64,000 bases of DNA. Source: Trichoplax sp. H2 (taxonomy: Eukaryota). Location: NCBI GenBank assembly GCA_003344405.1, contig NOWV01000177.1, forward strand, positions 1 to 64,000, given 5' to 3'. This document shows, in pieces, positions 31,086 through 58,713 of the stretch. Both the position numbers and the translations under genes were made by a program. The notes below the pieces were generated by a model. The model saw nothing but the letters and a program-made list of their open reading frames with translations, did not search any database and was not told where the DNA came from. How positions within the stretch are numbered: position 1 is the stretch's first letter; each line of letters begins with the position of its first letter.

Positions 31086-31151
31086 TAAAACATCTTTTTT
31101 ACCGCAACAGCCCAAACTATTTGACTCTTAAGCTAGCGGATAGGCTGCGAC

Positions 31152-34300: not shown

Positions 34301-35411
34301 TAGTTGCACCTTAGTTTTAGTTACATTTTTCCTAGTTAAAGTATCTAAATGGAAATTGAAGATGCTGTAAGTCTTATCAAGCATCAAGATTGAACACCTC
34401 AAATTTTACATTCCTTAAATAGCTCCCAACTGGCCATATAATTTGTTTTTTACTACTTAAGAATTGCCCTGTAATAGTTCACTAGCCAAGTAATTTCTTA
34501 GTAGTAATCAACTTTAAGCAGACACGATATCTTTATTTTCTAGCATTCTGTACCGGTCTACTACTGTATATTTTAGCAGTGCAGTTAGCATGAAAATCTT
34601 TATCATGTTTGATGTCTAACAACTTATGCTAAGACACGTATATGATCGTACTATTAAACTCTTAAATATCTAATATCATCGAGAAAAACGTCTTGAAGGC
34701 AGAATAGAAACACGATATAAATGACAAGTGTGGTTAAATTACATTTTGCTTTAGAAAATTGCTCTACACAGAGCAGAAAATATGAATTACTCTGCTCTAT
34801 AGAGGACTAAACGCTGCAATCATAGTCCCTACGGACTAGATTATATTGAATATTTAACTATGGTATCTTCTTAATAAATCTGATTATCTATTAGGGAATA
34901 TCTATTAATTTTCGAATAATCATAGCGTAAATTAGCTTTACATCATCTCTTCTTTGTCACTATAAAATCAGTGACGAATACCCTTATTAATAAGGCAAAA
35001 CATGAGATTGATGCCAATATTTTTGTCGGATTATATTATATTAATGTTCATTGATTTATTCGTAAGTTTTTATATTTTTCACTGATCTAGAAATGTTTCA
35101 ACTGATATTCCATTAGTCGTGCAGCAACATAGTGTAATACATTTGACCATTTTGTTGATTAATCACATTAATCACAGATGTTTCATGAAATTTCGCATAG
35201 TAACAGTCAGCTTGGGATGCACTTGATATTCAATAGATGTTATTAATTCATTAATCATCTGTTGAGCAAAAATCAACATTCCCCTCTCTATTCCATATTA
35301 AGCTTAGAGTGATGCTGACGTTGATAAAATCTAGCTTTTATAAATGATCTTATGAAGAAAATAAGAAATGAAATGTAATTCTTTTCTTCTTCTTATAACA
35401 ATACTTGACAG

Positions 35412-38400
35412 CTGACGTTGAAAATGGCAAGAAAGAGCCAAGACAAGTTAGCGAAAAAGAAAAAAAAATATTAGACGAGGAAGATAAAGATGAAAGTATA
35501 GAGGAAGAGGAAGAAATTGACCAAGAAATGAAAGACGATCAAAATGAAATTTATTGGGGCAACTGGATGGAATTCCTTCTGTCTTGCATTGGTTACGCTG
35601 TCGGCTATAGTAATGTCTTGAGGTTTCCGTACATCTGCTATAAGCATGGTGGAGGTTAGTTGAGGTTGATTGCTTGATTACTTATTTCTTCTCGCTGAAA
35701 TTTATACCAATTTAGATATTTCCTGGTTTCAATTCAATCAGTAATACTCGTATAATAACAAACAAGGCACTTACAAATACTCGTATTTACAGATTATTAG
35801 AATTAGTGGACAATTTTACGATTTTCTACGATATTATACAATTTATAGCGAGCAAACGTCTAAGCAGATTCTTACCGGCTAAATTTTAGTGTAGAAAGGT
35901 TAAAAGATCTGACATACAAATGGAAGATAGGCGATTAAAATATAAAAGACCGAATGAATTAATGCGCCAATATTACTGTTTTGAATATTTAAATGATGGT
36001 TTGAAAATATTATAAATCGTATAGCTTTTATACCTTCACTTACAACATCTTAATTTGATTGTAATTGGACCTTTTAGGCGCTTTTCTCATTCCTTATTTT
36101 GTTTCTGTATTGTTGGTTGGAGTACCGACGTTACATATGGAGTTAGCTCTTGGCCAATATATGAGAATGGGTCCTGGCACACTATGGAAACATGTCTGTC
36201 CTGTTCTTAAAGGTACGATAAATATTCATTTCTTACATAGTAATGTTAGCGGTTAAAAAATACAAAAAAAATTTCGATTGGATTTCTTACTATAAGCAAT
36301 CTAAGTAAAGTGTTGAAACTAAGATCTTGCTGCTAAATTATTAAAATGGCAGATGCTATTCTTGAGCAATAGGCTTACACTACCAGATATTAACTATAGT
36401 TATTCAATTAAGCGCAGAGGCCTATTTGCTTTCACTTATAATATTGCGGATATATCTGATTTGATATTAATGCCTGTCCACATACTTAAAATAATATTTA
36501 GGCTTGGGTATTGCCATGATAGTTTCTTGCATTTTAAATGTGGTTTACTTTCATATCGTCTTGGCATGGTCACTCTTTTACTTTTACGCCAGTTTCTTTC
36601 CTCAATTGCCCTGGGCATCGTGTAATAATACCTGGAATACTCACGAATGCTATGTTACTGGGGATGTATTTGGAAACGTTAGCGGAAAAGCGGCTTCCGT
36701 TGAGTTCTTAGAGTAAGTTAATCGTCACAAATTACTGAATATTTAATTTCGTTGCACCGGGAGTAAGGAAATTTTCTCTAGCTATGATTTTTCGTAAACT
36801 TCCTTCCAAATAACATCGAAAATCTACCGACTATTAGCATTCCAATCTAAGATACCGCAAATAACATTTCATTGCCGTAATAAGCTGTAGATAATACTTT
36901 GATTTATAAACCTTTATAAATTCATAATTGCTTAATTTTTGATCGTCATTTATTCTAAGTCTTTTATACGCGTGTGCTTATATATTGACAGATTAATCGA
37001 TTTTCCTCAGAGTATCAATGTCACTGATGTTATAATGTCTTCTAAAATCAATAAATAATTATATGTTAGTCGCACAAGTTTCCTTTTCGCATTGCCGTAA
37101 TTACCCTAATTGCTCACCACAAATTCTGTCCTAATTGTCTCTGTGATAGTACATAGCGGCTTTTCATATAATACAAGTAGATTTATATTATTTACCAATT
37201 ATAGGAGATCCATGCTTAATGTCTCTAATTTTAATTTCATATCTTGTTAGCCTGGTTATACTATATTAAATATTTTTTACAATATCCTTTACTGATTTTT
37301 AATCTATCATAATATACACTATGTGCAATCATCTTATGTCAACGTGGAGTCGATACGATTTATTTTGTATCTTTCAACTATAAATCAAATGACATATTTT
37401 AAATTTTAGTCTAGAAACTCTAAGGATCGACGAAGGTGGAGCTTTGTATTATGATTTAGTGCCACACTTGGTAATCACACTTTTGATCGCCTGGACAATT
37501 ACCTACTGTGCAATGTGCATGGGTATCGAATCTTCCGGAAAGGTTGAATATTCTAATCAAGGATATAGTTTGTGTAGAAATAAACTAAAAGAAGAGATTA
37601 TACAGTAATTGGACCTTGTTCTCATTCAATTTACGTATCCCTTTCTTCATTCTAGGTGGTTTACTTCACCGCCACAGCTCCTTATGTTATGTTATTCTCC
37701 TTATTAATAAGAGCGGTTACACTACCGGGTGCTACTCAAGGCATTATTCAATTTCTAGTGCCGGATTTTAGTAAGCTGGGAACGCTAGATGTAAGTTCAT
37801 GTTATAGCAAACCAAAAAAATGTCTTATTTATTTGCACATAAAAATATGATAGAATGCAAACGGAAATACTGTAAGATGAAAGTGAATAAATTGAATTGA
37901 AACGTTGTTTGCATTAGCCTTGGGCTGATGCTTTAGGGCAGGTACTTTCAGCAATCGGAATTGGATTTGGTGCAATTATAACATTAGGAAGTTATAACCG
38001 CCGTGATAACAAATGTGGCAGGTAATTTCTTTTATTTCGTTTACAGTATTCATGAGCCCTTAGGTCATAATAGGAAATCGGTTTGACAAAATTATTGGAT
38101 TTGAATACAACCTACTGTTTGATTTTATAGAGATAGTGCTTACATTTGCACCATTACAAGTTTTACAAGTATAACCGCTGGTCTTGTGTGCTTTGCTGTT
38201 CTCGGCTATTTGTCTCGTATTACTGGTAAACCTATTGATGATTTGATTAGCGAAGGTATGAAAACGTTATAAAATCCTCAAATCCATTCAATTAATAAGT
38301 TGATGAATGATTAGGATTTTCTGTTACGGAACGACCAAGGATTTCAATCAGGGATAATATCGTATTAAAATAAACATGTTTAGCCATACTAAGTTATCAC

Positions 38401-40988
38401 CAGTAAAAGGATTTTTACCTACGATAAAGAATCCTGTACTTTACTCTGTAGTAATTTAGATATCTTACCCGTTACATCACAAGTATTTCCTTCTACCTTT
38501 CATTGTTATAGCTTGTGCTTTTTGTCTGTTCTATGGCTACATTAATACTCATTACAGCTAGAAAAATTGTAGAGCTGCTGATCATTACGATTGAAATTTG
38601 CTTAGAGATCTTACCGATTTCTGATTAATTGAATTTCACTTCCTGTTGGCACAGAGATCGTAATTGCCTTTATTGCCTATCCAGAAGCTATTGCAAAATT
38701 ACCAAGTCCACACTTTTGGGCCATAGCCTTTTTCTTTATGTTACTTCTATTAGGAATGGACAGCATCGTATGTGGAAAATTCTTATTCTTATAACTTAAA
38801 TCACAACCTTGATAATTAGATGATGGAGAGAGTTATGTAGGAATTGACTTAAATCTATTTTATTCTCCTATTATCAATACTAGTATGGTATGGTAGAGAC
38901 ATTAATTACCACAGCAGTTCGATTTTCGAAAGGGAGGTGGGAGAATAGAAAGCCCATGGTGACATTTTTTATTTGTGCAGGTCTTTTTACAATAGGTTTA
39001 ATATTTACTACTAGGGTAAGTTAACATGAATAGATAATGGTCTACATTGTCTACGTTTCTGTTCGTATATTTCTTTAACTAAAATTAGCATAATGCACAT
39101 GTAAAACACTACGGGGTAAAGTTATCATTTAAAACTAGCCCTATTTGGTAAACTAAAATAAGCCGTAGCTTAGCTGTTTCAAAAGCATTATAAAGCCGCT
39201 AGATTTGAGAGGTTTATAAACCACCACATATGTAATTTGAGACTGATTCTATAAGTGTGATCATAGTCAAAGTGGATATGATTATAATCATATAATTTTA
39301 GATCCTTCATTTTTATTTCTAGTCTGGTCTCTTTTGGCTTATCGTTGTAGATACCAATAATGCTGGTCCAATTGTACTTGGTTTGACCTTATTTGAGGTC
39401 TTGGCAGTTTCATTTGTATACGGTAAGAGTGGACTAAATCCTGACCAAATAGAAAATGCTAAAACATAAAGTACAGACTTATTGCATATGGAATCGCATT
39501 TTGAAAAGCGTACTAAATCTGAAGGAAATAGCAAATGCTACATATAAAGTAAAGGCTTTATTGCACATGTAATCGTATTTTAAAAAGTACACCAAATCCG
39601 AAACAAATAGAAAATGCTGAATATAAAGCAAAGGCTTTTCTGCATATTTAATGCTATTTTAAAAAGTACGCTAAATCACCTTTCAATTGAAAATGCTAAA
39701 TATAAAGTAAAGAATTTGCTGCATATGTAATCTTACTTTAAAATTTGCGCTAATCCTCACCCAATTGAAAATGGCAAATATAAAGTAAAGGCTGGATTGC
39801 ACATCAAATCCTATTTTAAAATCTGTTTACCGATATATCCCATATAAGAAATATTAAATCGAAGCTACTGCTGCTGATAAAATATTGAAAATTTTGAAAT
39901 GGATATTATGCATATAAGTTTATTGTCCACTTTACTACAGTGCATGATATATCGTCCTTGTTATGCTAAAATAAGTTTAACAATTCTATTAGCGATAGTT
40001 AGCATAACTTTATGACATTAGCAAAGAAAAAAAATGGCATCCATTACTAATAAATTTATAGAAATCATTTTACTAATATCCTTAATATATAAAGTATTAA
40101 GTTGCTGTTGCTGATTTACAGTAAATATAGAGAGCCTAAAGAAGATAAAATCATGTATATTTTTGCCTCAAAATTAGCATTTCATTTATGTAGTCTAGGA
40201 ACAGATATTTATAGCTTATTGAATGTTGTATCCATTTCAGGCGCTGATCGATTAGGTCAAAACGTCAAAGACATGACCGGATCTCGACCAAATAGCTATT
40301 GGATCTTGACATGGAAATACGTCTGTCCAATCGGTGCAGGTGTAAGTATTATATTGTCGTATTGAATGCACCTTGGCCAAAATAGTTCAATAAGCCTAAG
40401 CACATCTACTGTGAAATAAGCTCATAACTCTTAAGACTTAGCTTAGCGATTTTGCATTTCGTATCTTTAAGCTATAAGCAGTTATGATTAATTTAAACCT
40501 GGATATGATCCGGGTTTCATTGCAAATCTAATTTGTAAATTCTTTAGTTTAATTTTGTGGTCAGTTTGGCTAAAACTGAACCAATGGAATATCTTGGGAA
40601 ACCTGTTGAACCTTGGGGAGTTGGAATTGGCATCCTCTTGACATTATTAGTTTTAATTTGGATTCCTCTAGGAGCCATTTATCAACTTTATACCGCTGAA
40701 GGCAGCCTTAAACAGGTTAAGCATTTAAGCAGCTATTCTGTAGTGGTTGTAAGATTTGAAGGCTTATAAATTTATTAAGGAATCAACTACAGCTTACATT
40801 GCTTTATTCTGTACTTTAGTTCAATTTATTTTTTTGACATTTTTTTATTTATCATATAGAAATTTGCAACTTCCTTTTCGCCTCGATCAACCCATAAAAC
40901 CAAACGTAAGCAAGTGGATAGCGTTATTTTAACAAAGATCCTAACGGAGCCTTCTAAAATGGAATGCAACTATGTTTCTACAATATAG
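35412..40988 (+). CDS. SLC6 (neurotransmitter:sodium symporter family) transporter, paralogue A; 5' start uncertain
   Basis: About 13 GT-AG exons encoding [180 protein letters not shown]; ends [12 protein letters not shown] at 40988. First coding exon not located (in-frame ATG at 35528; candidate upstream exon ending near 32768). Confidence 0.92.
39433..39822. repeat. About 80-bp intronic minisatellite, 5 diverged copies
   Basis: aaaatgctaaa.ataaagtaaaggc.ttattgcacatgtaatc..attttaaaaagtac recurring near 39452, 39532, 39611, 39691, 39771. Confidence 0.85.
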
Positions 40989-41599
40989 TGAGCGATGGAA
41001 AACTCTGTCGTAGTCAGTGCATTATACTTACAGTAGTCCAATAGGATCATAATTTAATGATACTATAGTCCAACAAGGATATTCTTAAATTTCTATACTT
41101 TCCTTACATAAAGGATATTTCCTATTTTCAGTCGCAATCTAGCCTACTTAATTAACACATTACAACAGTAATAGCAAAGTGATATTATAAATTGTACTCT
41201 TCATTTTATTTCTCTCTAAACTTTAAGAATTAATTTACAGTTTGAAATTTTATTCTAACGTGAGCGTCAAATCAATTTGCTTATTTGTATTACTCTGGTA
41301 TATAGGATATTACAATTTTTCATGAAAATTAATCTTGCAGTGCTATATTATGGAATAAAATATTCTATCAAGGCAATCAAATAACCTTTGACATCTGATT
41401 GTAATTGCTACTTCTTTCTACAGATATACTGAAAAAAGCTATAAATTTATATAGTAAACTGTAGATTCTAATAACTGTACAGAATAAGACGTAGGCATTG
41501 TACAACTTTAGGAATTAGAGTAGAGATGAAAAGCTACATTATTTCAATTCTGTTAAAAATTGCAATCCGATCTTAATAAGCTTGCTACTTCAAAGTGAC

Positions 41600-42220
41600 T
41601 TATAGATCTTGACTTCTACAAGTTATTGAAAATGAAAATTTATGTTCTTAGTATGATATCTGCAAAAGCCCAAATCGGATTTTACATCACCACTAATAAT
41701 TACGTAGCATAATTATTATTGTATAAACTAGATTTCTCATGCTTGCACAAACATATTTCATTCGCTTGATATCTGCTTAAAAATTATATGAACTCATTGC
41801 TAGAAAAACAAGTTGTATTTCTTGACTTTCTACTGGATATTAATAAAGAAATTTCTTTTCATGCTATAAGATCTGTAAGAGCACAAATTGGGTTTTTCAC
41901 TATATCGCATTTTTAGTTAAAGTAAATAATATTTGTTTGAAACCTAGATTTCACTCGCTTACTCAAATATATTTCATATGCTTAGTATCTGATTGGAATT
42001 GTATAAGCTCATCTATAGAAGAACGACTTGAAGATCTTGACTTTCTACTAGACATTATTGAAAAAAGGAATTTTTTTCCTCAGCATGATATCTGCAAGAG
42101 CACAGATCGGATTTTAAAGTATCTCCCATTTGCGTAGTATACCAGTAATTAATACTGTATAAGCCTATATTTCACGTGTTTACAAAAAATGCATTCCGTT
42201 TGCATAGTATTTAATTCGAA
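41600..42220. repeat. About 215-230-bp diverged tandem repeat, roughly 3 copies, downstream of SLC6-A
   Basis: Recurring blocks tcttgactttcta.., atgatatctgcaa.agc.ca.atcggatttta and ctagatttc..gctt..caaa.atatttcat. Confidence 0.65.
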
Positions 42221-44919
42221 TAATAAGGGAAAGGTGGAACTTTTATAAAAATATCTAACCCTTTTCAATCTCAAATTTAATTGTTCCTTGAAATAAAGCT
42301 TTGTCTATTTATTGGATAGGTGTCCTAAATCATATCGGTATAAATAAACTTTAACGAAAGGATTAGTGATTTTACCACCTGTGATGGCATTCCAGGAAAT
42401 CAATTATTTTAGCTTTTAAAGCTAATTCTAATTGCATAATATTCTGAAGTATATTTGTATAAACATAGCTTAGCTTTGCAATCTCCGTCCTTTTATTTCT
42501 AAGGATCGATTTTACATGAAATCAACTCTATTCTGCTTGTTCGATTAACGAATATCAATACAATGATAGCTTATATTTGCTTAAATAGTTCAAGTTGATT
42601 AATTTTTAATGCTATCCGTGATAGTTTGCCTGCAGATAACTTTATTTATCCACAGAATCTGACGTCGCGCATAATTCAAGATTGTTCTTTCTCAGCATGT
42701 TCATTTCAATTTAAATCAAGCCAAGAAGATTTAGAAGATACTTAGCAGTAGCAATCGAGCTAAAATTTGAGCCTCTCATCGACTTTATCCTGTCAAAAGA
42801 TGGCTTTTAATAACTGCAAGTGATTCATTTCACATATGAAATACAACTGTTGGATACTGCCTCATATTTTGCAACGATAGCTACAGCAATCATGATTGCA
42901 ATACATTTTGTATTTTCTTCACCGCAGCTTTATCGCTACGGGATTGCAAAAAACAATCACTGCTAGTTTGTTTTAAAAATTAATTTAATAAAATAAATAA
43001 TTCTAAGCAATTAGCTCTTCAATTCAATTGAATACATCAAATCGTATGATTTTATTCTTTTATGGGATGGATCAAAAGCCATATGCTAATTTACTATAAG
43101 GATTATGTAAATTCAAAGGATAAAATCAGCCATGCTTCAGTTTAGCTTGAAGAATATATTGATTTTTTATCGTCCAAGCTATTCCAGTTGAATAAGCCAT
43201 ATTAATCTATATAGGAATAAAACAACATTAGCAGTCTATCTTTAGGTTTAAGATGGTTAATAGTAAGAGAGGATAGAGCTTGCAGTGGCAATATTCGATA
43301 AGGCACATAAGATAGCCATAATCATCAATCATTATAGCAATTCTGAGCCTCAACTTTGGCATGTAGAATGCTAACAATATTGGTTTGCTAGTATACTAAA
43401 ACCTTTGCTTGGACGCTTTTCTTAGCCTTTTCATTTATTTCCCTTAAACAACTGTATCCATTTTGACTATCAAGATATAAGAGAATCTCCCAATTATTCC
43501 GATTTGCTCTGATCTCGAATACAAATTAGATCGACTATCTTAATCAAATCAAAAGATTTGTTAATGTGGTCTATTAAATTTAAGGGAGAGATAAAACTCC
43601 AAAATGCCATTGAGCTTACGTTTGCCATTGCAATGGATCGTAATGAGAAGAATGCTTCATAACTAGAAATTCAACTTTCAGTTGAAAATTATATTTTATG
43701 CATTCCTTAATATTCGTCCACTGTATAAAATTATTTTCAATAATTAATTTCCCTTAGTAAGAAAAGTATAATTTCATTCTTCCAGGCTTCAAGGCCAATC
43801 TAAATTAAGTAACTCATTTTTATTCTGTAATTTAAGTAGATAGCGTTATTTTAGGCTACTAAATTACTTTGTGGATCATCAAAAGAATGACCTTACTTGT
43901 TTTACATAATTTCAGCCAAGATTAAAAGCTGATAGGGCTGATTTTGTAGCATTATCTACGCGTCGATTACTCTAATGGATGATCCTATTTGTTGGCTGTG
44001 AAGGAGCATGTGTAGGGGAAAATTAAGAGAGACATATAATTACTGTTACGCTTCTGTAATTTTAGTATATTGTTATTATTTTGAGGCACGTAGAAGATTG
44101 GATGCTGAAATGAGCATGTAGTGTAGTAAAATGTTATTTTAATTCATTATGAGTTTCAATTTATTATCATCTATTGCTATATTTTTTAATTATATTTTAA
44201 TCAATATGAACCTGTGCCTCCTACCAAGTCATTTTATCTTATTTATTTTTTAAAATACGTTTTCATCTATCAATAAAGGAAAAAATCCAAATGTCTCAAG
44301 CTCATATTTGTATAGTAGATTTTCTATGGATGCATAAATTAAAGAAGTTTATAGTTGTTTCGCTGTTAGACGCCGCAATATCTTGTGGTTGCCATGAAAT
44401 TAACCGTTATATAACGATAACGCTGTTTGTGAACATAATGCCCTGTCAGACTACGAAATAATGACCTGCGCTTGTGCATGGAATACATTGAGAACTTATT
44501 ACTGATTTAAAATATTATACTTAATTAATGCGATGTGTATTATGAGAAATCCGTAAAGCTAGATGGAGTTGTTAGGCCAGTTCTAACTTGTAAGTATTCA
44601 ACTTTAAAGGCTACCACGCGAGAGTATGAACCAAAATATTGACGCGTTATACTTCCTTGCGAAAGTATAGTATAAATAGACCATCCAATAATTACAGTAA
44701 TCGACATTTCTAAAAAAACGTTTTCTTAAATTGGTACATAATCCTACAAATAAAGCTAATTATCATATCAGATATGAAATTATTAACTAAATCTAGATAA
44801 ACCTAGTGGAGTAAATAAGATATTTTGCTATTTCTTCCAGTAGCATCAAACTAGGTTAGGATTCAAGAATGAGCCATTATTTTAAAAAGTAATTGGTTCC
44901 TGAATCAAACTACGGCTCT

Positions 44920-46710
44920 AACTAATATCAACCAGTATTATCCTTATGTAATTTTTTACTCGTGAAATAAATTAAAATTGTCTAATCCTGTCAACAAGAT
45001 TGATTTCATATAGTACGCAAATAACTAATATTGACCAGTGTCACTCTTTAGCATTTCTTATTCATGGACTAAATCAAAACTGTCTAATCCCGTCAACAAG
45101 ATTGATATTACATAGTAAACTAAGGGACTAATATCAAACAGAGTCATTCCAAAGCATTTCTTATTCATGAATTAAATTAAGACTGTTCAATGCCGTCAAC
45201 AAGATTGATAATACAGGGCCCATCAAGGGATTAACATCTAACAGTATCCTAATTATTGTTTATTTATGAAGTATATTGAAATTGTCTAATCCCGTCAACT
45301 AGATTGATATCACATGGAAAGTTAGGAGACTAACATCAAACAAGGTCATTCCTAAGCAATTTTTTATTCATGAAATAAACTAATATTGTCTTATTCCGCT
45401 AGCAAGATTGAACCTATAGGGCAAGATATGGGACCAACATCAAAAAGTGTCGTTTGTAAACATTTTATGCATGAACGCCACCAATACGCATTTATATGTA
45501 TTCTTGTGACATAAATACACCAGAGATATTTTCGGGTCTTCTTCTATCTCGAACGACTTATCAAGTTTAATTTCCCGAGATAACTACGAACTTTTTCCTT
45601 AAGTTTCACGATACAAACGATATAGACCTTCTCATAGGGCGAAAGTGATAAAATAATAAACACTTTATAGTAAAAGTAACCTACTTTTATACCTTCTATC
45701 GATATTCTGGAGCAGTTGCTGATTCGATACTTTGAAATGAATACTAAAAAACGATATCGGCTATCATGTATTTTCAGATCTAAATTTGTATTACTTTATG
45801 CTCTATTTCATAATATGTTAGAGCACGCTTATAGCATGAGGCAGTCATGGTCTGAACACTATCTGACCTTTGAGCTCTCTTACAAATTAGATATGTAACT
45901 AATTGACTTGTTTTAACAAGAAATTGAATTAGTATTACATACTCGTAATCTAACGACAAGTTATTAACCATACCGTATGATAATCAATATAGTGTATTTA
46001 TTCTTATTTCTTAACGGTTGTCTTTCACACCGCGGCAGTAAAATAAATTAAAAATTGTCTTATCCCGTCAAACAAGATTGATGCTACATGGTAAGCCAAG
46101 GAACAAACATCAACAGTACCATTCCTAACCATTGATTATTCATGAAATAAATTAAGAATATCTAATCCAGCCAAATAAATCATCAAAATATTGCAGGGCG
46201 AGCTAGGAGACTATTATTAAGCAGTATTATTCCTAACCATTTTTTATTCATGAAACAAATTAAAATTGTCTAATCCCGTTAACAAGGTTGATAATGCATA
46301 GTAAACTAAGGGACTAATATCAAATAGCGTCATTCTTAAGCAATTTCTTATTCATGAAATAAATTAAAATTGTCTAATTCCGTCAACAAGACTGATATTG
46401 CATAGTAAGCAAAAGGGCTAATATTCAACAGTGTCATTCCTAAGCATTTCTTATTCATAAAATAAATCAAAATTGTCTAATTCCGTCAACCAGATTGATA
46501 GTGCAAGGTAAGCCAATAGACCAACATCAAACACTGTCATTCCTAAGCATTTCTTATTTATGAAATAAATTAAGATTATCTAATCCTGATAACTAGATTG
46601 ATATTCTATTGCTACCTAAGGAACTAATAACAAAGAGGGTCATTTCCAAGTATTTCATTTTCATTCTTGAAGTAAATTAAATTTGTCTAATCTCGTCAAC
46701 AAGATCGATT
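44920..46710. repeat. About 103-bp satellite, roughly 12 copies in two blocks (44920-45475 and 46035-46710)
   Basis: Unit like aattgtctaatcccgtcaacaagattgat...aagggactaatatcaaac.gtgtcattcctaagcatttcttattcatgaaataaattaa; cores near 44980, 45082, 45184, 45284, 45388 and 46057, 46160, 46268, 46372, 46475, 46578, 46685. Confidence 0.9.
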
Positions 46711-48478
46711 TTTTGTACGGTAGTAAAGTGGGGATCCGTCAATCCAGGACAGAAACGAAAGTCATCTATTTTTTTATCCAAATGAAAGTAGTATGGGAAA
46801 TGGAACGAATAACTACATGTAGAACGGCTGGGAAACCCTATATTGTCACTCCAACTTTACGATGGCTTTAGGCTAAGGAAGGAATGATTCGGATTCCTTA
46901 AATCTATGGTAAAGATTGTTAATTTAATCAGTCCGTAATAAGTTGTCCATTGCTTTCATGAGTTAATAGCCATTTGCCGCAACCAACTTTGACTAATTAC
47001 TACTAGTATTCTTACTATAAAATTAAATTAACACTGAATTATACTAATTAATTTGCATTTAATTTAGAGGTAGACACTTATGAAATCTTTTTGGATGTCT
47101 ATCAAGCATTAAGATTGAGATCATTCAATATTTTATTCAAAATAAGGGTATAAAACGTTAGATAACGTCGGATTAATACTGTTCGAAAATTTATGATCAT
47201 CACATTAACTTTATGATAGATTTAATCTACAACTGGAATTTTATCATCATTCTAGTGGTTACAACTATCTGAAATGTAGCTACGATATATAATAATTATA
47301 AGTGGTGATGCAACAAGTGGCTTATGTTATTTCAACGTTAGCATCGATTTCTTGGACTAATAAATAAAAGTATAGGCAAACTTTGTTGATCGATTGCAAG
47401 TTGTTACTGTATCTGCTAAAATTGACTTTATTGATGCATCTGACAAAATCAAGAATTAATCGACATACGCATTCATCCAAGCTACAGTAGGAAAATGAAT
47501 TCAATGACTTTGTTTGAGCAGTTAGCTAAAATATTATCTTTACTATAATTTTATGATGACATTAATGCCGGTACATAAAAGATTAATATAAAATCGATTA
47601 ATGAACCAACGGAACAATGGAGTACCTGCTATTGATTTTACCTCGAAAGATTTATTTGTGCGTGAATAATTAACTGTGAATTTGTCTGGCTATAGATTCA
47701 TGCTCTTTTGAATATTATATTAGGAGTAAGATAATAGGTTGCAAATAAAGATGGCCACTATTGAAAAAAACAAGGAAGATGCTAATTAGTCGATACTGTA
47801 ATATGCTAAAGGTAAGCCTTGACTAAGTAATTTGCTATTGAAGAGACTGCCTAACGCATTTGTAAAATTAATCTTTTATCATAATGATGCACTCTCTATT
47901 CTAGCAATTGAATATTAACTTCCTGCACTAAATGAAAACAATACCTTTCATAAAAAAATTAGAGCTTTACAAATTTGGGAGCTTAAGGGCAGGGCTATCT
48001 CACCCCCTATAGATAAAAATTAGTATGATTGTAGAAATAACGACTATATATCATTACGCTTCAAAAAATTTTTCTTAGAACTTGTTATCCGCTGGCAACC
48101 GGCGGAAAGTTTTCTAAAAATTTCTGAGTACTCTGTTAAGGTAAGAACCTAAAATTACTTCCCGTTATTATTATGCCGATTAATCTAGACTTTGAGTTCA
48201 GTTCAATGCTGAATTGATTTCAGAATTTTTAAATATCATTATAAATTGATTCATGGATTTGCTTAAGAATCTGCTATATTCAATTTTGATCCTGAAATAC
48301 CATCAATATCATTTTAAATTAGCAGTGGTCATTAGGAACTTTTCTGCGGTTTGTAACTCGAGTTTTACTGCATAAAGACATCGATATAAGCAATTCATCA
48401 TTTTCTTGACAACTGTTGAACATATAAAGTTCTTAAAATTCAAATTGGGTAAATAAAGCTGAGAGCGTAGCTAGCAAG

Positions 48479-51400
48479 ATGGAGATGCGACCAGTCGAAG
48501 GTCTTGTCCAAGGTAAGGCTAATTTTTATATTTATTAATCCTAGAAAAATTTTCAACATCATTTCTACTTTATACTGAGTATGATCGGATTGAAGAGTAA
48601 ATTGCTTTTCGATGCTTAATGTGCTTTCGTAATTTTTCTTGCTTCGATTTTTCCTGTATAATAACCTATCATGCCTTAGATCCGGAAAAACAACCTGAAA
48701 AATCTGAAAAGAAAGAGTTAGATGATGCTTTATCCAGTGAAATAGAAGATGTTAAAAATGATCAAAATCAAATTTATTGGGGCAACTGGTTTGAATTTAT
48801 TTTGTCATGTGTTGGATACGCTGTCGGCTACAGCAATGTACTTCGTTTTCCTTATATCTGCTACAAGCACGGAGGAGGTAAAATCATTTCTAAACGTTAC
48901 TACCTGCTTGATATCATATATGATTCTGTTGGCTAGTAAACTTTAGACACCTTATTAATAATCAAGGTGCTTTTATCGAACATTATACTATTTTCTAAAA
49001 TAATAAGCCAACTAAACGAAGTGCCAACAATATTGGTACACAGGCCTTGATTAAACTCTTAAACATCTTCCCCATAGCCAATTTTTTAACGGTTCCTTCC
49101 TTAATTTGAAGATACGAATTGATTTGCTAATATCAGTCTTTTTTATTTACTTAATTTATAAAATCATCCTATAGACAGCACTGCAGTACATCGGTAGCGA
49201 CTCTGCAATCCTCATTTTCTCCTTCGGTTTATGAATTTTTAATCTTTTTATTTCTATTTATTTGGCGAGAAAATGAAGAGAACATATGCCTTAGTTTCAC
49301 TTCTGAAGTCAGTAGCATAGGCATGCTTATTTCTAAGGATCTATCTGTTATTTCTTCTCGTAGCTATGATCGATTACGTTCTGTAACAACCAGCGGTTCG
49401 CCCTTACTAGGAGAAATAATCTATCGATACATAGTCCTGATAATTAATCAATCTTTATCTATTCCAAACGAACCAGATATATGTTGTATTCATATAGAGG
49501 CACCTATATCCGTAACTAGACAATTTCACAATAGTATATCCAGACTAGGCTTAGTTAAAAGGCGACGTAGGCAGCCTATTGAAAGAATTATTCTTCATTT
49601 GTACTTTATTAATTAGAGTTAATTACTAATGCATTAGTAGCGCATTGACTTTTTTTGACTGGGATCAATCGGGCATTATCACGCGTATTTTAATCAAAGC
49701 AATAAATCTAATATCTTTTAAAGGTAAAGATTTTCAACCATTAGATATCTATGAAATTTAGTGCGCCGGCGAGAACGTGTAGCTAGACTGTCCATTAATA
49801 TTTTAAGTTTTCCTGTTATAGTAATTTTAATTTAAGGAAACCTATACCTAAAATATGTCTATTACCACTACCTGATATTCGATTATATTCTAATCATTTC
49901 CCTAATTGAAACTTCTTTTCCTATTCTTGCTATATCGGATAATTTCTCTTACGTAGTCATATTTATTCTTGGATAAAAACAGCAATGAGATGGGACACCA
50001 ATAATGCTATCCTGTCTCACTCTTCTTAATCAAACAAAATAACATACTTAGAGACTTACATTACATCCAATAATAAAGTACTACATTTTTATCCTATTAA
50101 TTTAATTACCACTAGATCAAAGTTCACAATTTTTTCCATAATTTATTTTTATAAACAATTTAAGTTAGAAGTCTTGCTAAGATTAACAAAAGATGAAGAA
50201 CAATATAACTACTGACGACCGCATTATTAAGCATCAATTCGATAGTATAGTGCAGGTCTTAGAGGGGTGCCTGGATGGGTTACGCTATTTAAGTGCGAAA
50301 TCATTCTTCCGTGTTCTATGAAAGATTCAAATGTTAAAGTAAGGTTCAGTAATAGTGTGGATACTTTTTATCGCAGAATGATTTGAATAGATTGTTCCAT
50401 TGATGATCAATTGACGTTTATAGACGTATGTTCTGTTGACTGTCAATTTGATCTAGTCCTGATCGATTCGATTTTATGCAATGGATATTGATTGGAATAA
50501 ATAAGAAAACTGCCAAATCAAAAATTCGAGATCTTTCAGAACAGTAAAAGCTTAAATTAATCAGTGATCATTTAGATAGTATTATAAGAATACGCTTATA
50601 AATTAGATTAAGCTCAGTCCTGAAGCTGATTCTGGATTCCAAGGACCAAGATAGAAAAAATACAGCATAGTGAAGACAAGATAAAATGAAAGACTTACTT
50701 CTTATAATAAATTAAATCACTTGAATAGACTTCTTTGATTTTAGCAATATTAAAAAGTTCATATTAATAGAAGAATCAAACAATTTGCACCGTCATATTG
50801 CATGAATTGGATAGACAACAAGAACACTGCTAGTTATAAAGATAATTATAATAATCTTGATCAGGTTTATATACGCTAATGGTTCTAGAATGATTTCAAG
50901 AAATAGAAGCGAAATTGCTAGTTTATAGTTTAGACTAGTCGGGAGAGCAGTGGTACCTAGCACAGGGTTGCTATTCGATAAAATAACGTCGACCCATGCT
51001 GTTTCTTATGAAAGCAAGCAAGCGAACAAGAAACAAACAAGTTTTAAAAAATATAGTGGAAGAGTATTATTGTAATGATAATTCTTCATTGTAATTCTGC
51101 CTTCTATCAATAGTGAAATGCGATCGTTTATTATTGCCACTATCTTCACTGTTAGAAATTATTAAACATCCTCCTTCTTGTCTTATTCATGACATTTGCG
51201 CACAGAATTCTAAAAAGTTCATCATCGCAATAAGTTTAATCAAGTGCTGTAATAATCTAACCAATTAGTCAATGTAATCTGAAGGAATTTAGTTCCAACG
51301 AAATAAATTACAAAGTCAAGACGGATTTTATTAAAAATTAATATTATATCGTTAGAATGAATCACGATACTCTATCTGTATAGTAGTTTTAGAATGATTT

Positions 51401-54400
51401 TGGTTTTATTTGTCGGCAGTAACAAGGTTATATGCAATCATAATTCAATTCATAAATGAAAAAACTTGCCTCCAGTAGATATTTAATAAATTCTACCGTG
51501 GAAATCGATCTTCCTAAGATATAGATACTCTTACATTAATTAATAACCAACACCGTAAAATGTAGGAAATCTGTGCACTTACAATATATTAATTTACGTA
51601 GACTATGTACCATGTTGATATACTTGTAATTCTAACATCTACAGGGAAATATTTGATTGTAGTAGCCGCTAGATCAATAAAGTATTCATTCCTACGATAT
51701 GAATACAATTGCTGGATTATACCCTTCGGGTTTAATTTAAGAGTAAGGCATGACCCAGACTCTTTTAAATAGAAGTCTTGCTGTAATTGATTGTTATTAT
51801 CAATGGGAACTCTGATAAATTCTTTTGTTATACAATACTTCTTCGGAGAATTTACTGGTTGCAATATCAATTACTTAGGTAAAGTACAACATTATTTATT
51901 AGGTGCGGCATTAAAGCTAATCTAAGCAAATTGACCAAATAGATTGGTCAATTTAACTGTTATAGTTATAGTAGGGAGGTACGTATCAAATTAATGTGAT
52001 TAGTTTCTAAATATAGAGTAGCTCATCAACAATAATCTAAATAACATTAAACAATTTAAATTTTAGCCGTTTCTTAAGGAAAGTATTAAGAAATGATTTC
52101 CATACTCAGGGTATACCTCCTTACAGGATAAACCGTCAAAATTTATAAAAATATTGGATTTTCCGAATAAGATAAACATTAGTTATGGGTGATCTGAGGA
52201 AAATTTCTAGATTATTGAAAGAATTTTTTAACAACTTTTAAATGTTCATACATGCTAAAAATCTCTAGGGAGTCAACGAAATGAATCAATTATAATTTAG
52301 TTAGGGATATCATAGATTACCTTATATAATTTACATAATAATTGATGAGTTGATATCCATTTCAGAATGAATGCATTGAAAAAATTATTCAATTCGTGAA
52401 CATATGTTAGATATATCTCTTGGATATTTGTAAAATTAAAGTATGCATGTTTTGATGAATCAATTAGATTCACATAAAAGTATTTTACTCGAATTTAAGT
52501 GAATTAATAATAAATTTAAGATTGAAAGCATTAGATGGATGTTAAAATTCATGACAAGTTTTACGCCCGATTTTCATCAAATTGGCGTAACCCTAACATA
52601 AAGTTAATAACAATTTTAGAATGATAGCATTAGATGAACTTTAAGATATGGTGAATATTCAAATATGCGAAACTTGAAATTTATGACGACTTTACTCCTA
52701 ATCCTTATCAAATTGCAATATTTTCATTCGAAATGGAAATAAACTATTTTAAATAATTGTTTGCATAGTTATTCGTAAGATTACTTATATAGAGGATAGA
52801 TTTAAGGTGTTTCAACTTATAAATTGATCCTAAATCTAAACGATAGCATAAGATTTGAATCAGCTTGACTTTAAACTATTAATCAACGGTAATAATTATT
52901 AAATTTGAATACTGTTCACAACTGAATTAGAATTATTCGTTGCAACTCACGAGGAGGATCTTAGAGAAGTCTGTTAGCCATGATAGATAAAGTTACTAAC
53001 GTTTCAATAGATACAAAAATTGTTCTCTGTCATTGCTAGTGCAGATTAACTCAACCAGATTATTTGAAATGTTTTTTTCCTATGACTATCATAATTTAAA
53101 TATCCTTTCGATTTATTCTGTCTTTAGGCGCATTTATAATCCCATACTTTGTATCTGTCATACTTATTGGTATTCCAACACTTCATATGGAGCTTGCCTT
53201 AGGACAGTATTCAAGAATGGGTCCTGGTACACTATGGAAGAATATATGTCCTATGTTTAAAGGTATGATCAATTTCGTCCCTATTATCCATCTATTATAA
53301 AATTAGCAAACGATTTGTAAATTTCTAAGTAATAATTGATAATCCTGTAAAATTATAGGTAAAGATATTGCACTCTAAATCAGAAATGATAAACTCTGAA
53401 AGCATGAGCTCTTACATTAATCTACGATTCATATCCAAATCGGGAAGTTAAGATTATTGTACTGTGTACTTTAATCTAGTAAACTAGAATTATAAGCTCA
53501 AGTTAGACTGGATACATTTACATAATTAGATCATTTCATAATATATTATATGCATTTGACTCAAGAATGTTAAGGGTGGGTTTGTTAGTCACCTATCTAG
53601 TTTTTATTTATTATAAATGAAATTCTGTATTGCTACCCTGATTTGCAATAGAACTTCTTATGTAACTCGAACTATCACCAATGGAACAAAATTTTTAGTT
53701 CTACATTTATATCAAAATTGTATAACGTATTTCTCGATATTACAAAAAAATGTATGAAATGAATCCTCTGTAATTATTAATTTGCTCATTTTTACCGTAT
53801 GTTCACAGGTCTTGGTTTTGCAATGATTGCCTCTTGTATTGTTATTGTAATCTATTTCCATATCGTTATTGCCTGGTCGCTTTACTACTTTTATAGCAGC
53901 TTCTTTCCTATACTTCCATGGGCAGAATGCAATAACACTTGGAACACTGCTCTCTGCTATGTAGCAGGCACCAATAACACAATTGCTGGTGGCGTTCCAG
54001 CTTCTATCGAATTTTTAAAGTAACTAACTTATTTATTGATTAAGAAGATTTATCTACAGGCTTTTGATTTATGACCTACATTTCGTTATTCTCTTCAACC
54101 CTTTTACAATATGAAACTATAAGAATGATTCTAGTTTTTTATTTTACTTAATGTTGCCATTTTTGAAGTATTTCTACATTATATGACTAACCTTGTAAAA
54201 TTAATAATTCAAGATTTGGCAACGGAAAGTATAATCAACATCAGTTAGTTTTCATATAATACCAATAATAAGGTCGAACTCTTCAACCCAACAATAATTC
54301 AATTTGGTAACCTAGTTTGATCTTTTATTTGTATTTCTTAGCTATAGGGCATTCAATATTGACGTAAGCGGCTTACTTCATTACGATATTGTTCCACATC

Positions 54401-57400
54401 TGGCAATAACGCTGTTAATTGGCTGGGTTATCACTTACTTTGCTATGTGCATGGGAATTGAATCTTCAGGAAAGGTAGAGCTGATTATCATTTAACAATC
54501 CTCTTAGTATCATTATCAAAAATCGTGATTATGTAACACTTAGAGTAAAAATAACAGTTTTAAATACGGCACGAATTGTTTAGAAAGATTCACAAAATAG
54601 CTCTTTCATAACGCTAGTATATTATGTTTTAGCAACTTCATCAAGCAACCAAAAACGAGAAAAATACATTATAAACTTCATACTGAATACAACACTAGCA
54701 ATAGTTGCTTCATCACATATCTATAGAACCATCAAAATACAATAAATAAGGCATTCTTATCTAGCCAGAAAACAATAGATAAATAGTGGCACTCCGCTAA
54801 TAGGGTATGTTCGGAGATTATTAATTAAGCGGAATATGAAGTACTAGTTATCAGCGTCTGGCAGGAATAAGATATTTTCGAGGATGCATCGTTGTCATGA
54901 AAGTACATTAATTATTAGAATCGCTTTACATTAGACACGAAAAATCTATCATAACATGTGAAAACAGTAATTAAAATAGAAATGAATTTGAATGCAAAAT
55001 GAAACAGAAGTTATTATAGTTAAAACTCAACTATACTAATTTAATAAATCGTCATGATAACTTGTTTCGTGACAATCATAATAACACTCAGTAAATGGAA
55101 TAATGAAAATTGAACGGCATCATAGCTCACTTTTAGAATTGATTGAAGATGACAGAGATGAGCAGTATTATTCGGATCTGTAGATGATGAAGTAAATTGA
55201 TGGCTATAATGATATATTTCAGGTTGTCTACTTCAGTGCAACAGTGCCCTATGTTATGTTAATTGCATTGCTCGTTCGAGCCTTAACATTGCCAGGTGCC
55301 GATGTTGGTATAAAACAGTTATTCGTTCCCGAATGGAAGAAGTTAGGGACATTATTGGTCAGTATAAAATTATATAAGCCATTCTTTATATCAATAAACA
55401 CCGGTAGTAGTAACTTCTGTAAGAATTTAAAGGATAGCAGTAAAATAGCCCATTCCAATTATTAACCATTGGATTTTATTGCTTTTCTGAAATGGATGCT
55501 CAAATTAGCCATGGGTAGACGCATTAGGGCAGGTCTTATCTGCGATTGGTATAGGTTATGGTGCTATTATCACCTTAGGAAGTTACAATCGTCGTGATAA
55601 TAAAGTCCACAGGTATTGCCGATGATTTAAATATTATTTTAATGAATATCAAGCATCATATAATATTATGCGTAAACAATCAGTTAGTAGCAATTGTTAG
55701 TGGTCATTCTCGACAATTCCCAGAACTATTTTTTAAATTATGAATTAGAGCTTATTCAATAATGGGTAACAATACTGTAAAATTTCGAATCACATTATTG
55801 AGCCAAAAAAGAATCTCCTTTAAATTCTTTGATATTCGAGTATTAAAAATTTTTTCTACATTAGTTGACAGATAATACTTTACTAGAAGTAGTAAATACC
55901 TTAAGAACTAAATGATATTATTTTACACGAAATAGGCATCAGTTGACAAATAATTTAAAGCTTTGCTAGAAGCAACAAATACCTCCAAGATAAATTGTGC
56001 CATTTCAACCATGATATATGAATATCATTAAAACCTTGTTATTGACGTATATGATTGATTGAAATGATATTAAGGTAAATGTTTTAATTAAATTGGACTA
56101 ATTTCTTTAATGTTATCTTCTAGAGATGCCGTTTATATCTGCTGTATTACAAGTTGTACAAGTATATTATCAGGTATTATATGTTTCGCTGTACTTGGAT
56201 ATATGTCGAAAATTACAGGAACTCCAATTAAATCCCTGGTTCAAGAAGGTATGAAACTATACCATCCACTACCTGATCGATTCAATATAATATACACAGT
56301 TCTATATACATAAAAATTGAAATTTTCCTTCGTTCTATCGATATGGAGTATGAAAATTCTACTACAATTCCTATATTTAAAACTTTTAACATGATACAAA
56401 GTTCTTCTAAATTCATTAATGCTGAATATGAAAACCTCAAGTCATAACGATCTGTAACTTTTTTCTATAACAGAAATTGTCTTGGCATTTATTGCTTATC
56501 CAGAAGCTATTGCTCAATTGCCTAGCCCTCATTTTTGGGCTATTGCCTTCTTCTTCATGTTACTTTTGCTTGGCATGGATAGCATTGTAAGTCATCTTTG
56601 ATATAATTACCTCTACTGGAGATATTGATTAAAATGATCACAAATAACTGGTTTTTAATCTATCATTTGATTTATTAGTACGGTATGGTCGAAGTCATGA
56701 TCACATCCGTCGTACGATTATCCCGGGGTAAACTAGATAATAAGAAACCGTTCGTTATGGCAGGGATTGCAATCGTTCTTTATCTTGTTGGCCTTCTTTT
56801 TGCTACAAGAGTAAGTTAATTAATAATTTATTTATTTTATTTTAATCAAGAAGATAAAGTTTATATTAGTTTCTATTCTGATTCCGACATAGTCCTCATT
56901 TCACTCATTCGTTTTAATAAATTAGTTCGCCAAGATTTACTCTGTCGTTTCGATCTATTTTTATTTGAAGGCTGGCTTATTTTGGCTTATCGTCGTTGAT
57001 ACTAATAATTCTGGGCCGATAGTACTTGGGTTAACATTATTTGAAGTACTCGCTGTTTCGCTATGTTACGGTAACATTCAAAGACTTCTTTTAGTTTGTA
57101 TCGTGTTTAGTAATATCATAAAGTACTTTTATCTATTCTATTGCTGTAGTCATCTACAATTCTACAGTAGTCAAGCAATGTTAAGTTCATTGGATCGTGA
57201 CATAGAGTTAAAAAGATGAAAACTTCCTTGGGTTTTAAATATGCAGAGCTACAATTCATTCTTGACTATATTGCAGGTGCTGATCGATTAGCGGATAATG
57301 TAGAAGATATGACTGGAATTAGGCCTAATTACTACTGGATCATAACCTGGAAGTTTATTTGCCCACTCGGTTGTACTGTAAGTATTTTTATGGCTGTTTT

Positions 57401-58713
57401 AAGTTCTATGTGAGTATTTAAATTTAAATCAATCCTACCCTATCCGATAACTAGTTCTGTATCATCAGCGATATTCAGCGTGATTCGATATTCCAATAAC
57501 AGTTTCTAATAAAATTGACATCGAATATTGACTTGCTATCCTGAGAAACCTGATCATCATCAACTAATTTCCATTTAAATTTTGTTGATCCCATATGGTG
57601 ATATAATGTCAATGAACTGATGAGGACGATTAGTTCTAATAAAATTGATATAGAATATTAACTTGCTATCACACAAAATTGAATAATTATCATCAAATAC
57701 CATAATTCCCGTTTAATTTTTATTGATGCAATATGGTGAGCTGATGCCGATGAACTAATAGGAATGAACAGTTCCATTTTGAATTGAAAATATATTTAAA
57801 GAGATCGTATCCAAAATAATTGAATGCCGATATAAATTTGTGGTGCAGCAGATAAATTTGGATTATTGTAATTCGTGAACGCTCAAATCAAGCCTGATAT
57901 ATCATTATATTTATTAAGCCCAGTTGGATATTTATTTTTCAAACCTATTGTGAGGCAAATTTGATAATTGTTACCGTACACCATTGGCCATGTTAATAAT
58001 TAAAGTATATTCCATATTGGCCAGGCATATATCATTACCTGTCAAGATGACAATTCATGTTGCACTGCATCCCATAAAATCAGATAAATGATGTTAATAA
58101 TTAATTAAAGCCTAATTGGTTATTGACGAAAATAATTATAAGCTAAAATTAAATCTTTTCTTTGCAAGTATAGTATTCTGCTAATATAGTCAGCTAAATT
58201 TTGCTTTTCTTTCGTCTCAAGTTCTTATTTATAGCTAGCTTGGCAACGAGAGGTCAAATGCATTACCTATCTAAGGATGTTCCAGCATACGGAATTGGTA
58301 TCGGCGCTCTGATCTCCAGTCTCGTTTTAATATGGATTTTAGTCGGTGCGATCCATCAGATTGTAATCACACCGGGAACATTCAAACAGGTAACTAAGAA
58401 ATAATTAATTCAATTAAAGTTGGCGTTGTGAAATAAGGGAAAATAGGATAGCTCAATCATCTTTCCGCTAACGAATTCTGTATACAGCTGATTGCTGTAT
58501 AGTTTACACCTCCAAGGATATTACTAGCTGAGATTTATTGGTCGTCTATATCGATTGATTAGTTTATCTTTTCTTATTCCTTAGCGATTGGTGAAATCTT
58601 TCTCTCCTCGTCAAGGATTTTTGGACCTGCAATTCCAAAATAAGAAGAGCAGAGATCAATCAATGACCAAAGTAGAATTAAATGATCGTCCAACGTCCAC
58701 TTATATTTTTTAA
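48479..58713 (+). CDS. SLC6 transporter, paralogue B (tandem duplicate of A)
   Basis: Exon 1 48479-48512 [11 protein letters not shown], then 48680-48877 [39 protein letters not shown], 4.2-kb intron, and exons with the same boundaries as paralogue A ([102 protein letters not shown]); ends [11 protein letters not shown] at 58713. Confidence 0.93.
57500..57775. repeat. About 130-bp intronic tandem duplication, 2 diverged copies
   Basis: ttctaataaaattga.at.gaatatt.acttgctatc...atatggtga...atg.c.atgaact.at.gga occurs twice. Confidence 0.75.

Follow-up and report, generated by a model that had tools for sequence, protein, structure and literature searches.

Introduction

In the GABA transporter GAT1, a member of the SLC6/NSS family, the sodium site Na1 is formed by the carboxylate of the substrate together with N66, S295, N327 and A61; Tyr140 binds this carboxylate and Phe294 roofs the pocket (PMC10352132). 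In TuriSERT, an NSS protein of the bacterium Turicibacter sanguinis, Na1 substitutions including S230A, the equivalent of S295A, left transport unchanged and a substitution in the second sodium site, Na2, abolished it (PMC10707687). Here we describe two SLC6 genes, A and B, of the placozoan Trichoplax sp. H2, in which substrate-site, Na1 and gate residues are changed together and Na2 is spared. They lie on a stretch of 64,000 nucleotides that is referred to as the window (assembly GCA_003344405.1, contig NOWV01000177.1, positions 1 to 64,000 of the forward strand). An earlier note on this DNA, made from the sequence alone, had read both genes as an atypical SLC6 subfamily with a new substrate, changed ion coupling or a non-transport role. 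Residues are given in GAT1 numbering throughout.

Compared to the eukaryotic SLC6/NSS proteins GAT1, BGT1, GlyT2, NET, DAT and SERT, genes A and B show 36-41% identity to named members, the 12-helix fold, the Na2 site, the outer Arg-Asp pair, the cysteines of extracellular loop (EL) 2 and three of the four GAT1 chloride ligands. They differ in the Na1 side chains, the tyrosine of the central substrate site (S1), the lid phenylalanine, the EL4 tip and the inner salt bridge, and they form a placozoan clade of their own with the Trichoplax gene L015, outside the monoamine, GABA, ine and glycine/ATB0 clades. The monoamine transporters (SLC6A2/3/4, iDAT) are thus separated from them by clade placement and also by the Asp in transmembrane helix (TM) 1, which is Gly (G63) in both genes. 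TuriSERT likewise has Gly where amine transporters carry this Asp and tolerates the equivalent of S295A, whereas it is bacterial, keeps its own Na1 residues and was functionally assayed; A and B are known from sequence. The SLC6 member SNF-12 of Caenorhabditis elegans, for which a signalling role in an outer epithelium is described (PMC7043892), may be a further parallel.

In the accessible parts of the literature on Trichoplax SLC6, placozoan single-cell data and reuptake (PMC6590891, PMC10244343, PMC10133484, bioRxiv 2025.04.18.649542, bioRxiv 2026.10.09.757917), the site changes are not described; most subscription journals lay outside this coverage, and the SLC6 trees of PMC10244343 and the bioRxiv supplements could include the sequences. 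Six gene and protein identifiers were found in no main text among the papers searched, and the genes appear there only as named supplement rows.

Results

Substrate, Na1 and gate residues are changed together

Membership of the SLC6/NSS family is indicated by a PF00209 match and by similarity over the full length to solved SLC6 structures. The residue register was taken from the HMMER alignment of P0001, the T. adhaerens orthologue, to human GAT1 (7y7v, E 5e-118), with TM3 read ungapped. Residue frequencies come from an alignment with 127 other SLC6 representatives and refer to the rows that have a residue at the site.

Genes A and B share L64Y, G65S and W68L, Y140F followed by His141, F294S, S295A and N327T, as well as G360E, P361I, G362V, Q397I, F398Y, D410R and Y453N, and R44 is replaced by Glu in gene A and by Gln in gene B. 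W68L (0/126), F294S (0/126), D410R (0/122) and R44E (0/125) were not seen in the background. The other changes are rare there, with G360E in 1/125, L64Y in 1/125, G65S in 2/125, N327T in 3/125, S295A in 7/126 and Y140F in 8/126 rows. W47, G59-G63, N66, R69, Y86, E101, Q291, S308, Y309, S331, L392, D395, S396, E402, D451 and E469 are kept in both genes.

With regard to function, the carboxylate-binding Tyr140 hydroxyl, the lid Phe294, two Na1 side chains (S295A and N327T; N66 is kept; site definition of PMC10352132) and L64/G65 beside the carboxylate subsite have changed together. The Na2 ligands (G59, I/V62, L392, D395 and S396), the outer gate pair R69-D451 and the inner W47/S308/Y309 cluster are spared. 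At the inner gate the R44-D410 pair is replaced, with Glu or Gln at 44 and Arg at 410. Every motif named in the earlier note was found on the forward strand at its place in both genes, the alignments confirmed that the residues are non-canonical, and the note was also right that the Na2 region and the TM1 Asn and Arg are kept. Its statement that the chloride site is preserved holds for Y86, Q291 and S331 but not for S295, which is a chloride ligand in GAT1 (PMC10352132); the equivalent of N327, listed as a chloride ligand in SERT (Asn368; PMC10707687), is also changed.

On an 18-site key list genes A and B differ at 11 sites; of the 173 other rows with at least 15 of these sites covered, 88 differ at none and 55 at one, and only P0024, a degenerate multi-domain protein with 12 sites changed, exceeds eight. 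In none of 275 other SLC6 rows with all four positions were both Na1 side chains changed and Na2 intact. Both Na1 side chains were changed in two of these rows, each also without the Na2 Asp, and 12 rows showed the reverse, with the Na2 Asp lost and Na1 kept. In the same genome, 16 of the 18 other SLC6 loci retrieved differ at 0-2 of 17 sites, L006 at six and the partial L018 at four. W68L by itself is not unique to the pair: paralogue L017 (G000:C264:321000-328500) also carries it with otherwise ordinary sites, and L015 has Ala at this position; both may serve as useful controls. We take LeuT to have Leu at this position as well.

Three histidines have been gained in both paralogues, at gene B residues 75 (EL1), 97 (TM2, two before E101) and 140 (TM3, next to F140), in columns where 1-2% of the background rows have His; proton or metal sensitivity is possible. 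A partial sequence from Haliotis rufescens, P0169, shows a convergent TM1 (an aromatic residue, Ser and Leu at positions 64, 65 and 68) and N327G, with Y140, F294 and S295 kept.

Gene models and database records

Exon models built from the sequence place the two genes in tandem, head-to-tail, on the forward strand (Table 1). The putative start of gene A at 32984 is our choice; the interval given in the earlier note begins at 35528, and gene A starts upstream of this position. The translation of gene B is identical over its full length to P0010 (RDD38440.1, Trichoplax sp. H2), and that of gene A to the C-terminal 629 amino acids of P0009 (RDD38439.1, Trichoplax sp. H2). The first 78 residues of P0009 derive from an open reading frame at 30772-31005 and are probably an over-extension of the annotation of gene A. 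This frame originates from tandemly repeated units of roughly 45 bases, present at 30687-31088 and 32704-32766. A search with the TM1 exon led to TRIADDRAFT_33106 and TRIADDRAFT_33097 of T. adhaerens, in clusters that include both H2 records.

Table 1 Coordinates of genes A and B and of their diagnostic sites in the window.
Feature	Position	Strand	Details
Gene A	32984..40988	+	SLC6, 14 exons, 629 amino acids; all 13 introns GT-AG, no internal stops
Gene A, exons 1-7	32984-33044, 35412-35654, 36078-36212, 36502-36712, 37410-37542, 37656-37790, 37918-38021	+	
Gene A, exons 8-14	38131-38255, 38655-38767, 38884-39015, 39323-39422, 40241-40341, 40548-40715, 40860-40988	+	
Gene A, N-terminal gate and TM1	35537..35620	+	conserved Asp 35537, R44E 35546, L64Y 35606, G65S 35609, W68L 35618; N66, R69 kept
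Gene A, TM3	36549..36554	+	Y140F, then His
Gene A, TM6-TM7	37948..38158	+	F294S 37948, S295A 37951, N327T 38156; lid Phe changed, as are two of the three side chains that bind Na1
Gene A, EL4-TM8	38255..38922	+	G360E codon split by 38255/38655 junction; P361I, G362V; D395/S396 kept 38759-38764; D410R 38920
Gene B	48479..58713	+	SLC6, 14 exons, 605 amino acids; all 13 introns GT-AG, no internal stops
Gene B, exons 1-7	48479-48512, 48680-48877, 53128-53262, 53809-54019, 54342-54474, 55223-55357, 55509-55612	+	
Gene B, exons 8-14	56124-56248, 56474-56586, 56679-56810, 56971-57070, 57277-57377, 58222-58389, 58585-58713	+	
Gene B, N-terminal gate and TM1	48760..48843	+	conserved Asp 48760, R44Q 48769, L64Y 48829, G65S 48832, W68L 48841
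Gene B, TM3	53856..53861	+	Y140F, then His
Gene B, TM6-TM7	55539..56151	+	F294S 55539, S295A 55542, N327T 56149
Gene B, EL4-TM10	56248..57000	+	G360E junction 56248/56474; D395/S396 kept 56578-56583; D410R 56715; D451 kept 56998

Origin and relatives

Two trees were calculated, a quick search with 69 rows, in which deep nodes are weak, and a careful tree with 32 rows, from which 37 rows including seven of 17 Trichoplax loci and the long-branch representatives had been dropped; the incomplete L018 is in neither. Genes A and B are sisters and join L015 with support of 100/99 in the 32-row tree and a likelihood-ratio support (SH-aLRT) of 99 in the 69-row tree. Their stem is long, 0.72 compared to 0.42 for L015. 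In the 32-row tree the monoamine and GABA clades (100/100 each) and the ine clade (full support) exclude both genes; therefore the database names of RDD38439.1 ('noradrenaline transporter') and RDD38440.1 ('GABA transporter 1') do not reflect orthology. The atypical subfamily proposed in the earlier note is supported. The clade of L015, A and B can be placed only loosely among the SLC6 subfamilies.

L015 (G000:C874:17000-25000), the nearest relative, shows 46% identity to gene B over the aligned exons. It keeps R44, G65, Y140, an aromatic residue at 294, S295, N327 and D410 and looks like an ordinary amino-acid-type carrier, but W68A and an altered EL4 tip are already present. Since L015 is canonical at most sites and A and B share a stem, the rewiring took place once, after the split from L015, and it may have started at the outer lid.

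Among the best 150 matches from 1.84 billion representatives, identity drops from the paralogue (73%) to at most 44%, with no other close relative and no sequence outside placozoans that carries the same set of changes. Two full-length searches returned only ordinary SLC6s plus short fragments, and searches of the ESM Atlas and NCBIfam added nothing (NCBIfam below cut-off). Other atypical SLC6s in the comparison set are P0024, P0116, P0161 and L006. As a kind, atypical SLC6s are thus known; what is new, judging from these alignments, is that Na2 is spared and that the changes are fixed in two paralogues.

L006 (G000:C394:19000-25500; matching P0154 and TRIADDRAFT_31455) is a second, independent atypical SLC6 of the same genome, with N66H, R69E, F294K, Y309H, D395S and D451A and with divergent non-functional columns too; its T. 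adhaerens counterpart is in an 'epithelia unknown' module of the single-cell supplement described below. L018 (G000:C841:78000-87000) is a partial SLC6 with Y140H, F294V and an altered TM8 motif; the stretch retrieved for it yielded neither a TM1 nor a TM7 exon.

Selection and conservation

Over 523 codons, genes A and B show 71% protein identity, with proportions of synonymous and non-synonymous differences (pS and pN) of 0.756, which is saturated, and 0.204. As the Jukes-Cantor dS is infinite, pN/pS was used in place of dN/dS, which it overestimates; it amounts to 0.27 (0.23-0.31), not near 1. The two proteins agree at 136 of 145 constrained columns. The 15 shared rewired residues agree without exception, in 11 cases via different codons, compared to an expected identity of 62% (229/368) at unconstrained columns (P ~0.0008).

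Rare residues are concentrated at functional sites, on lists drawn after the finding was known: they occupy 11/30 constrained functional columns and 10/116 other constrained columns (odds ratio 6.1, p=4e-4), 9/26 and 12/120 without EL4 (p=0.003), and 6/20 and 15/126 on a strict list of ion, substrate and gate residues, where significance is only marginal (p=0.043). In contrast, L006 has rare residues at 7/30 functional and 24/110 other columns and is thus divergent everywhere.

Each gene belongs to a one-to-one, four-member orthogroup from four placozoan species, with adjacent identifiers in three, according to the available listing (PMC10580291, supplement 4). The orthologues bear the identifiers g04889 and g04890 in Hoilungia and PlH23_008997 and PlH23_008998 in Cladtertia. 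The T. adhaerens records carry the same residues as genes A and B, and the fragments P0003, P0263 and P0259, with 61-83% identity to gene B, retain the TM1 or TM3 changes. From this we conclude that the rewired residues are held under purifying selection after their origin and that both genes are a real, conserved, placozoan-specific SLC6 variant. The earlier note had likewise called the changes selected rather than decayed; this conclusion stands, whereas its argument does not, because both paralogues inherited the changes from one stem and sharing alone proves nothing.

RNA evidence and cell modules

Gene A is partly present in 18 of the 21 listed runs, and in many of them the matched share of the stretch is close to the exonic one. 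RNA contigs from four runs of four studies, one recorded as RNA and three presumed to be RNA, were compared over 37900-57899, a section that begins downstream of gene A's exons for TM1 and TM3. Eleven of the 13 introns of gene B are joined in these contigs; a twelfth has loose-end support and the thirteenth lies outside the section. For gene A, at least four of the seven introns inside the section are joined, and eight further joints beyond those listed were present. The splice junction that creates the EL4 Glu is joined in both genes alike. Run X18, with a small word share, matched at ≥99% in six of seven records and yielded no divergent orthologue.

In the accessible part of the single-cell supplement of Najle et al. 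2023 (PMC10580291, supplement 3), where module membership means co-expression and not localisation, gene A falls into a 'peptidergic kappa' module, with scores of 0.54 and 0.70 in the two Trichoplax species, and gene B into a 'dorsal epithelium' module (0.81 and 0.87), as well as into a pan-epithelial module of the H23 species (0.80). In the two Trichoplax species, both genes are missing from the modules for lipophil cells, gland cells and ventral epithelium. The kappa module also includes G-protein-coupled receptors (GPCRs) labelled histamine-, 5-HT4-, beta3- and GABA-B-like, labels that represent best hits only, and the upper-epithelium module holds two other SLC6 genes per Trichoplax species. 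No Hoilungia gene identifier turned up in the available module table, and neither did the orthologue of gene A from Cladtertia. A dopa-decarboxylase-like gene is in the fibre module of two species and is not co-expressed with A or B, so amine uptake is neither supported nor refuted by it.

Predicted fold

An AlphaFold2 model of the gene B protein P0010, calculated with a 144-row alignment, reached a pLDDT of 92 and a pTM of 0.91, superseding a single-sequence model (pLDDT 41). Foldseek matched it to dDAT, NET, SERT, GlyT2 and GAT1 with template modelling scores of 0.80-0.85 (query length). The model indicates that the 12-helix LeuT fold is intact, and the structural comparison suggested by the earlier note thus returned a normal SLC6 architecture.

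Other features of the window

Downstream of gene B, a copy of its TM12 exon at 60119..60290 (+), with 72% nucleotide identity over 248 bases including flanks, has an open frame and a kept acceptor and lacks the GT at the homologous donor; it lies outside the section compared with RNA. It is probably a decayed duplicate or a rare alternative exon.

On the reverse strand, an open frame of at least 1522 amino acids at 1-4566 contains repeated domains and near-identical internal repeats, which we take to resemble Ran-binding domains (RanBP2/Nup358-like), and exons at 21029-22547 presumably encode an HSP90-family, GRP94-like chaperone. Degenerate tandem repeats are located at 27551-28802, 39425-39825, 41597-42221 and 44919-46712, one of them within a gene A intron and two in the interval that separates A from B. 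RNA contigs match short stretches near 45541-45828 and continue from there into unrelated sequence. Near-identical 200-base duplications at 17413-18122 and 63267-63930, beside two runs of 20 N, are probably scaffolding overlaps.

Discussion

The alternatives raised by the earlier note, a new substrate, changed ion coupling or a non-transport role, can be ranked, although sequence cannot settle the choice. We tentatively favour, at a little short of even confidence, that genes A and B encode two working, placozoan-specific SLC6 carriers that use one Na+, at Na2, for a solute other than a plain alpha-amino acid, similar to TuriSERT. In amino-acid-transporting SLC6 proteins the carboxylate completes Na1, and the joint change of Na1 and Tyr140 would therefore fit a switch to a substrate without that geometry. 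The substrate would no longer complete Na1, and Na2 alone would drive the transport cycle, as reported for TuriSERT; the sequence pattern of both genes fits such a mechanism. L64Y and a larger EL4 tip would take up the space freed by F294S and W68L, resulting in a different lid, and the inner gate would be rebuilt with reversed charge, with Arg on TM8 and acidic or polar residues on the N-terminus. The cargo could be, in no particular order, an amine (tyramine, tryptamine, phenethylamine, choline, polyamines), a betaine-like osmolyte or another dissolved organic compound. The site of action would be the upper epithelium for gene B and a single peptidergic cell type for gene A.

The side-chain volume lost on TM1b and TM6 is exceeded by the gain at L64, G65 and the EL4 tip. 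With standard side-chain volumes, the net gain over eight lid positions amounts to 102 cubic angstroms. The equivalents of L64, W68, Y140 and F294 sit in a seven-residue network with EL4 in DAT (PMC3029329), so four of the seven residues of this network have changed together in A and B. SERT L99Y, the equivalent of L64Y, keeps its KM, with a Vmax in the 5-25% range given for active mutants (PMC4894957). As to context, orthologues of the SLC6 monoamine transporters are reported to be bilaterian, bar one coral sequence (PMC10244343), and trace-amine receptors are reported from Trichoplax (bioRxiv 2025.04.18.649542). At the inner gate, an Asp three residues upstream of position 44 is kept in A, B, P0003 and P0263 and could pair with R410.

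Several observations weigh against such a Na2-driven carrier. The exact charge swap E44/R410 is found in gene A only, as gene B has Gln and P0003 and P0263 have Lys at 44. In GAT1, R44Q reaches the surface yet is non-functional (PMC12685850), W68L transports at less than 10% and is trapped Na+-bound (PMC2233755), and non-aromatic substitutions of F294 hamper GABA affinity (PMC10352132). Na1 may be weakened and not lost, as N66, A61, the S295 backbone carbonyl and a Thr327 hydroxyl remain, and G63 still leaves room for a carboxylate. An acidic residue that could hold an amine was not gained in the central site, the only gain near the pathway being E360 in EL4. Trace amines are argued to cross membranes passively. 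In TuriSERT the two lid aromatics are retained, and its assays, from a single study, used a fluorescent surrogate (PMC10707687). The AlphaFold model is driven by canonical homologues and shows the fold, not a conformational bias. Finally, the lists behind the enrichment of rare residues were drawn in hindsight, with the marginal result for the strict list.

A rival reading is a non-transporting or poorly coupled SLC6 protein, a sensor, signalling scaffold or ion leak, which we regard as somewhat unlikely. Here Na+ would bind at Na2, with a lid unable to occlude and an inner bridge unable to form, and a shape change or leak would take the place of complete uptake. Both gates are hit, the outer one by F294S, Y140F and W68L and the inner one at R44 and D410, and matching single mutants inactivate or trap GAT1, as outlined above; DAT W84L is biased toward the outward-facing state (PMC3197159). 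The peptidergic, GPCR-rich module of gene A, the absence of both genes from the lipophil, gland and ventral-epithelium modules, and the description of the SLC6 member SNF-12 as a signalling protein are in line with this possibility. On the other hand, the residues of the transport cycle are all kept (R69-D451, W47, S308, Y309, E101, E402, E469, Na2 and three of the four GAT1 chloride ligands), the degenerate multi-domain SLC6s P0024, P0017 and P0018 have, unlike A and B, lost Na2 too, and the lid changes look volume-compensating, with the net gain given above. A symporter for amino acids, or for small peptides or amino-acid derivatives, with shifted specificity and a weakened, working Na1 is in our view unlikely. 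It would be consistent with the retention of G63, N66, A61, Y60, Q291, S331, D395 and S396, with the occurrence of Y140F and S295A, each by itself, in other representatives, with the canonical S1, Na1 and inner-gate residues of the sister gene L015 and with the two other SLC6 genes in the upper-epithelium module. It is opposed by the joint change of 11 of 18 key sites, given that 143 of 173 other rows show no more than one, and by F294S and D410R, which are unmatched among 122-126 representatives.

Relaxed or decaying duplicates without a selected function, or an alignment or assembly artefact, are highly improbable and largely refuted. The long stem, the decayed-looking exon at 60119 and other divergent SLC6 copies in Trichoplax (L006, L018) could be read in this way; the open frames, the RNA joints in runs of four studies, the low pN/pS at saturated pS, the agreement of A and B at constrained columns, the orthologues in four species with the same residues in T. 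adhaerens and three fragments, and the unambiguous GAT1 alignment all contradict it.

A more specific version of the Na2-driven carrier, which we consider quite unlikely, would be an amine-uptake carrier that arose from an amino-acid-type SLC6 without the TM1 Asp route: Na1 would have been dropped, the lid aromatic moved from TM6 to TM1 and the inner gate reversed, leaving Na2 alone, in placozoans with trace-amine signalling but without SERT or DAT orthologues. If true, this would be an animal SLC6 powered by Na2 alone and employed, in an animal with no neurons, by the upper epithelium and by a peptidergic cell type.

Long-standing mutagenesis work on GAT1, DAT, SERT and LeuT has called the residues altered here essential. 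With a natural pair that has about a dozen joint changes and orthologues in four placozoan species, it can be asked whether a transporter can do without Na1 and the R44-D410 bridge and how mutations in the gates offset one another. The labels 'noradrenaline transporter' and 'GABA transporter 1' in the databases are no guide to what the two genes do. Both are concrete candidates for clearing or sensing small chemical signals in a neuron-less animal.

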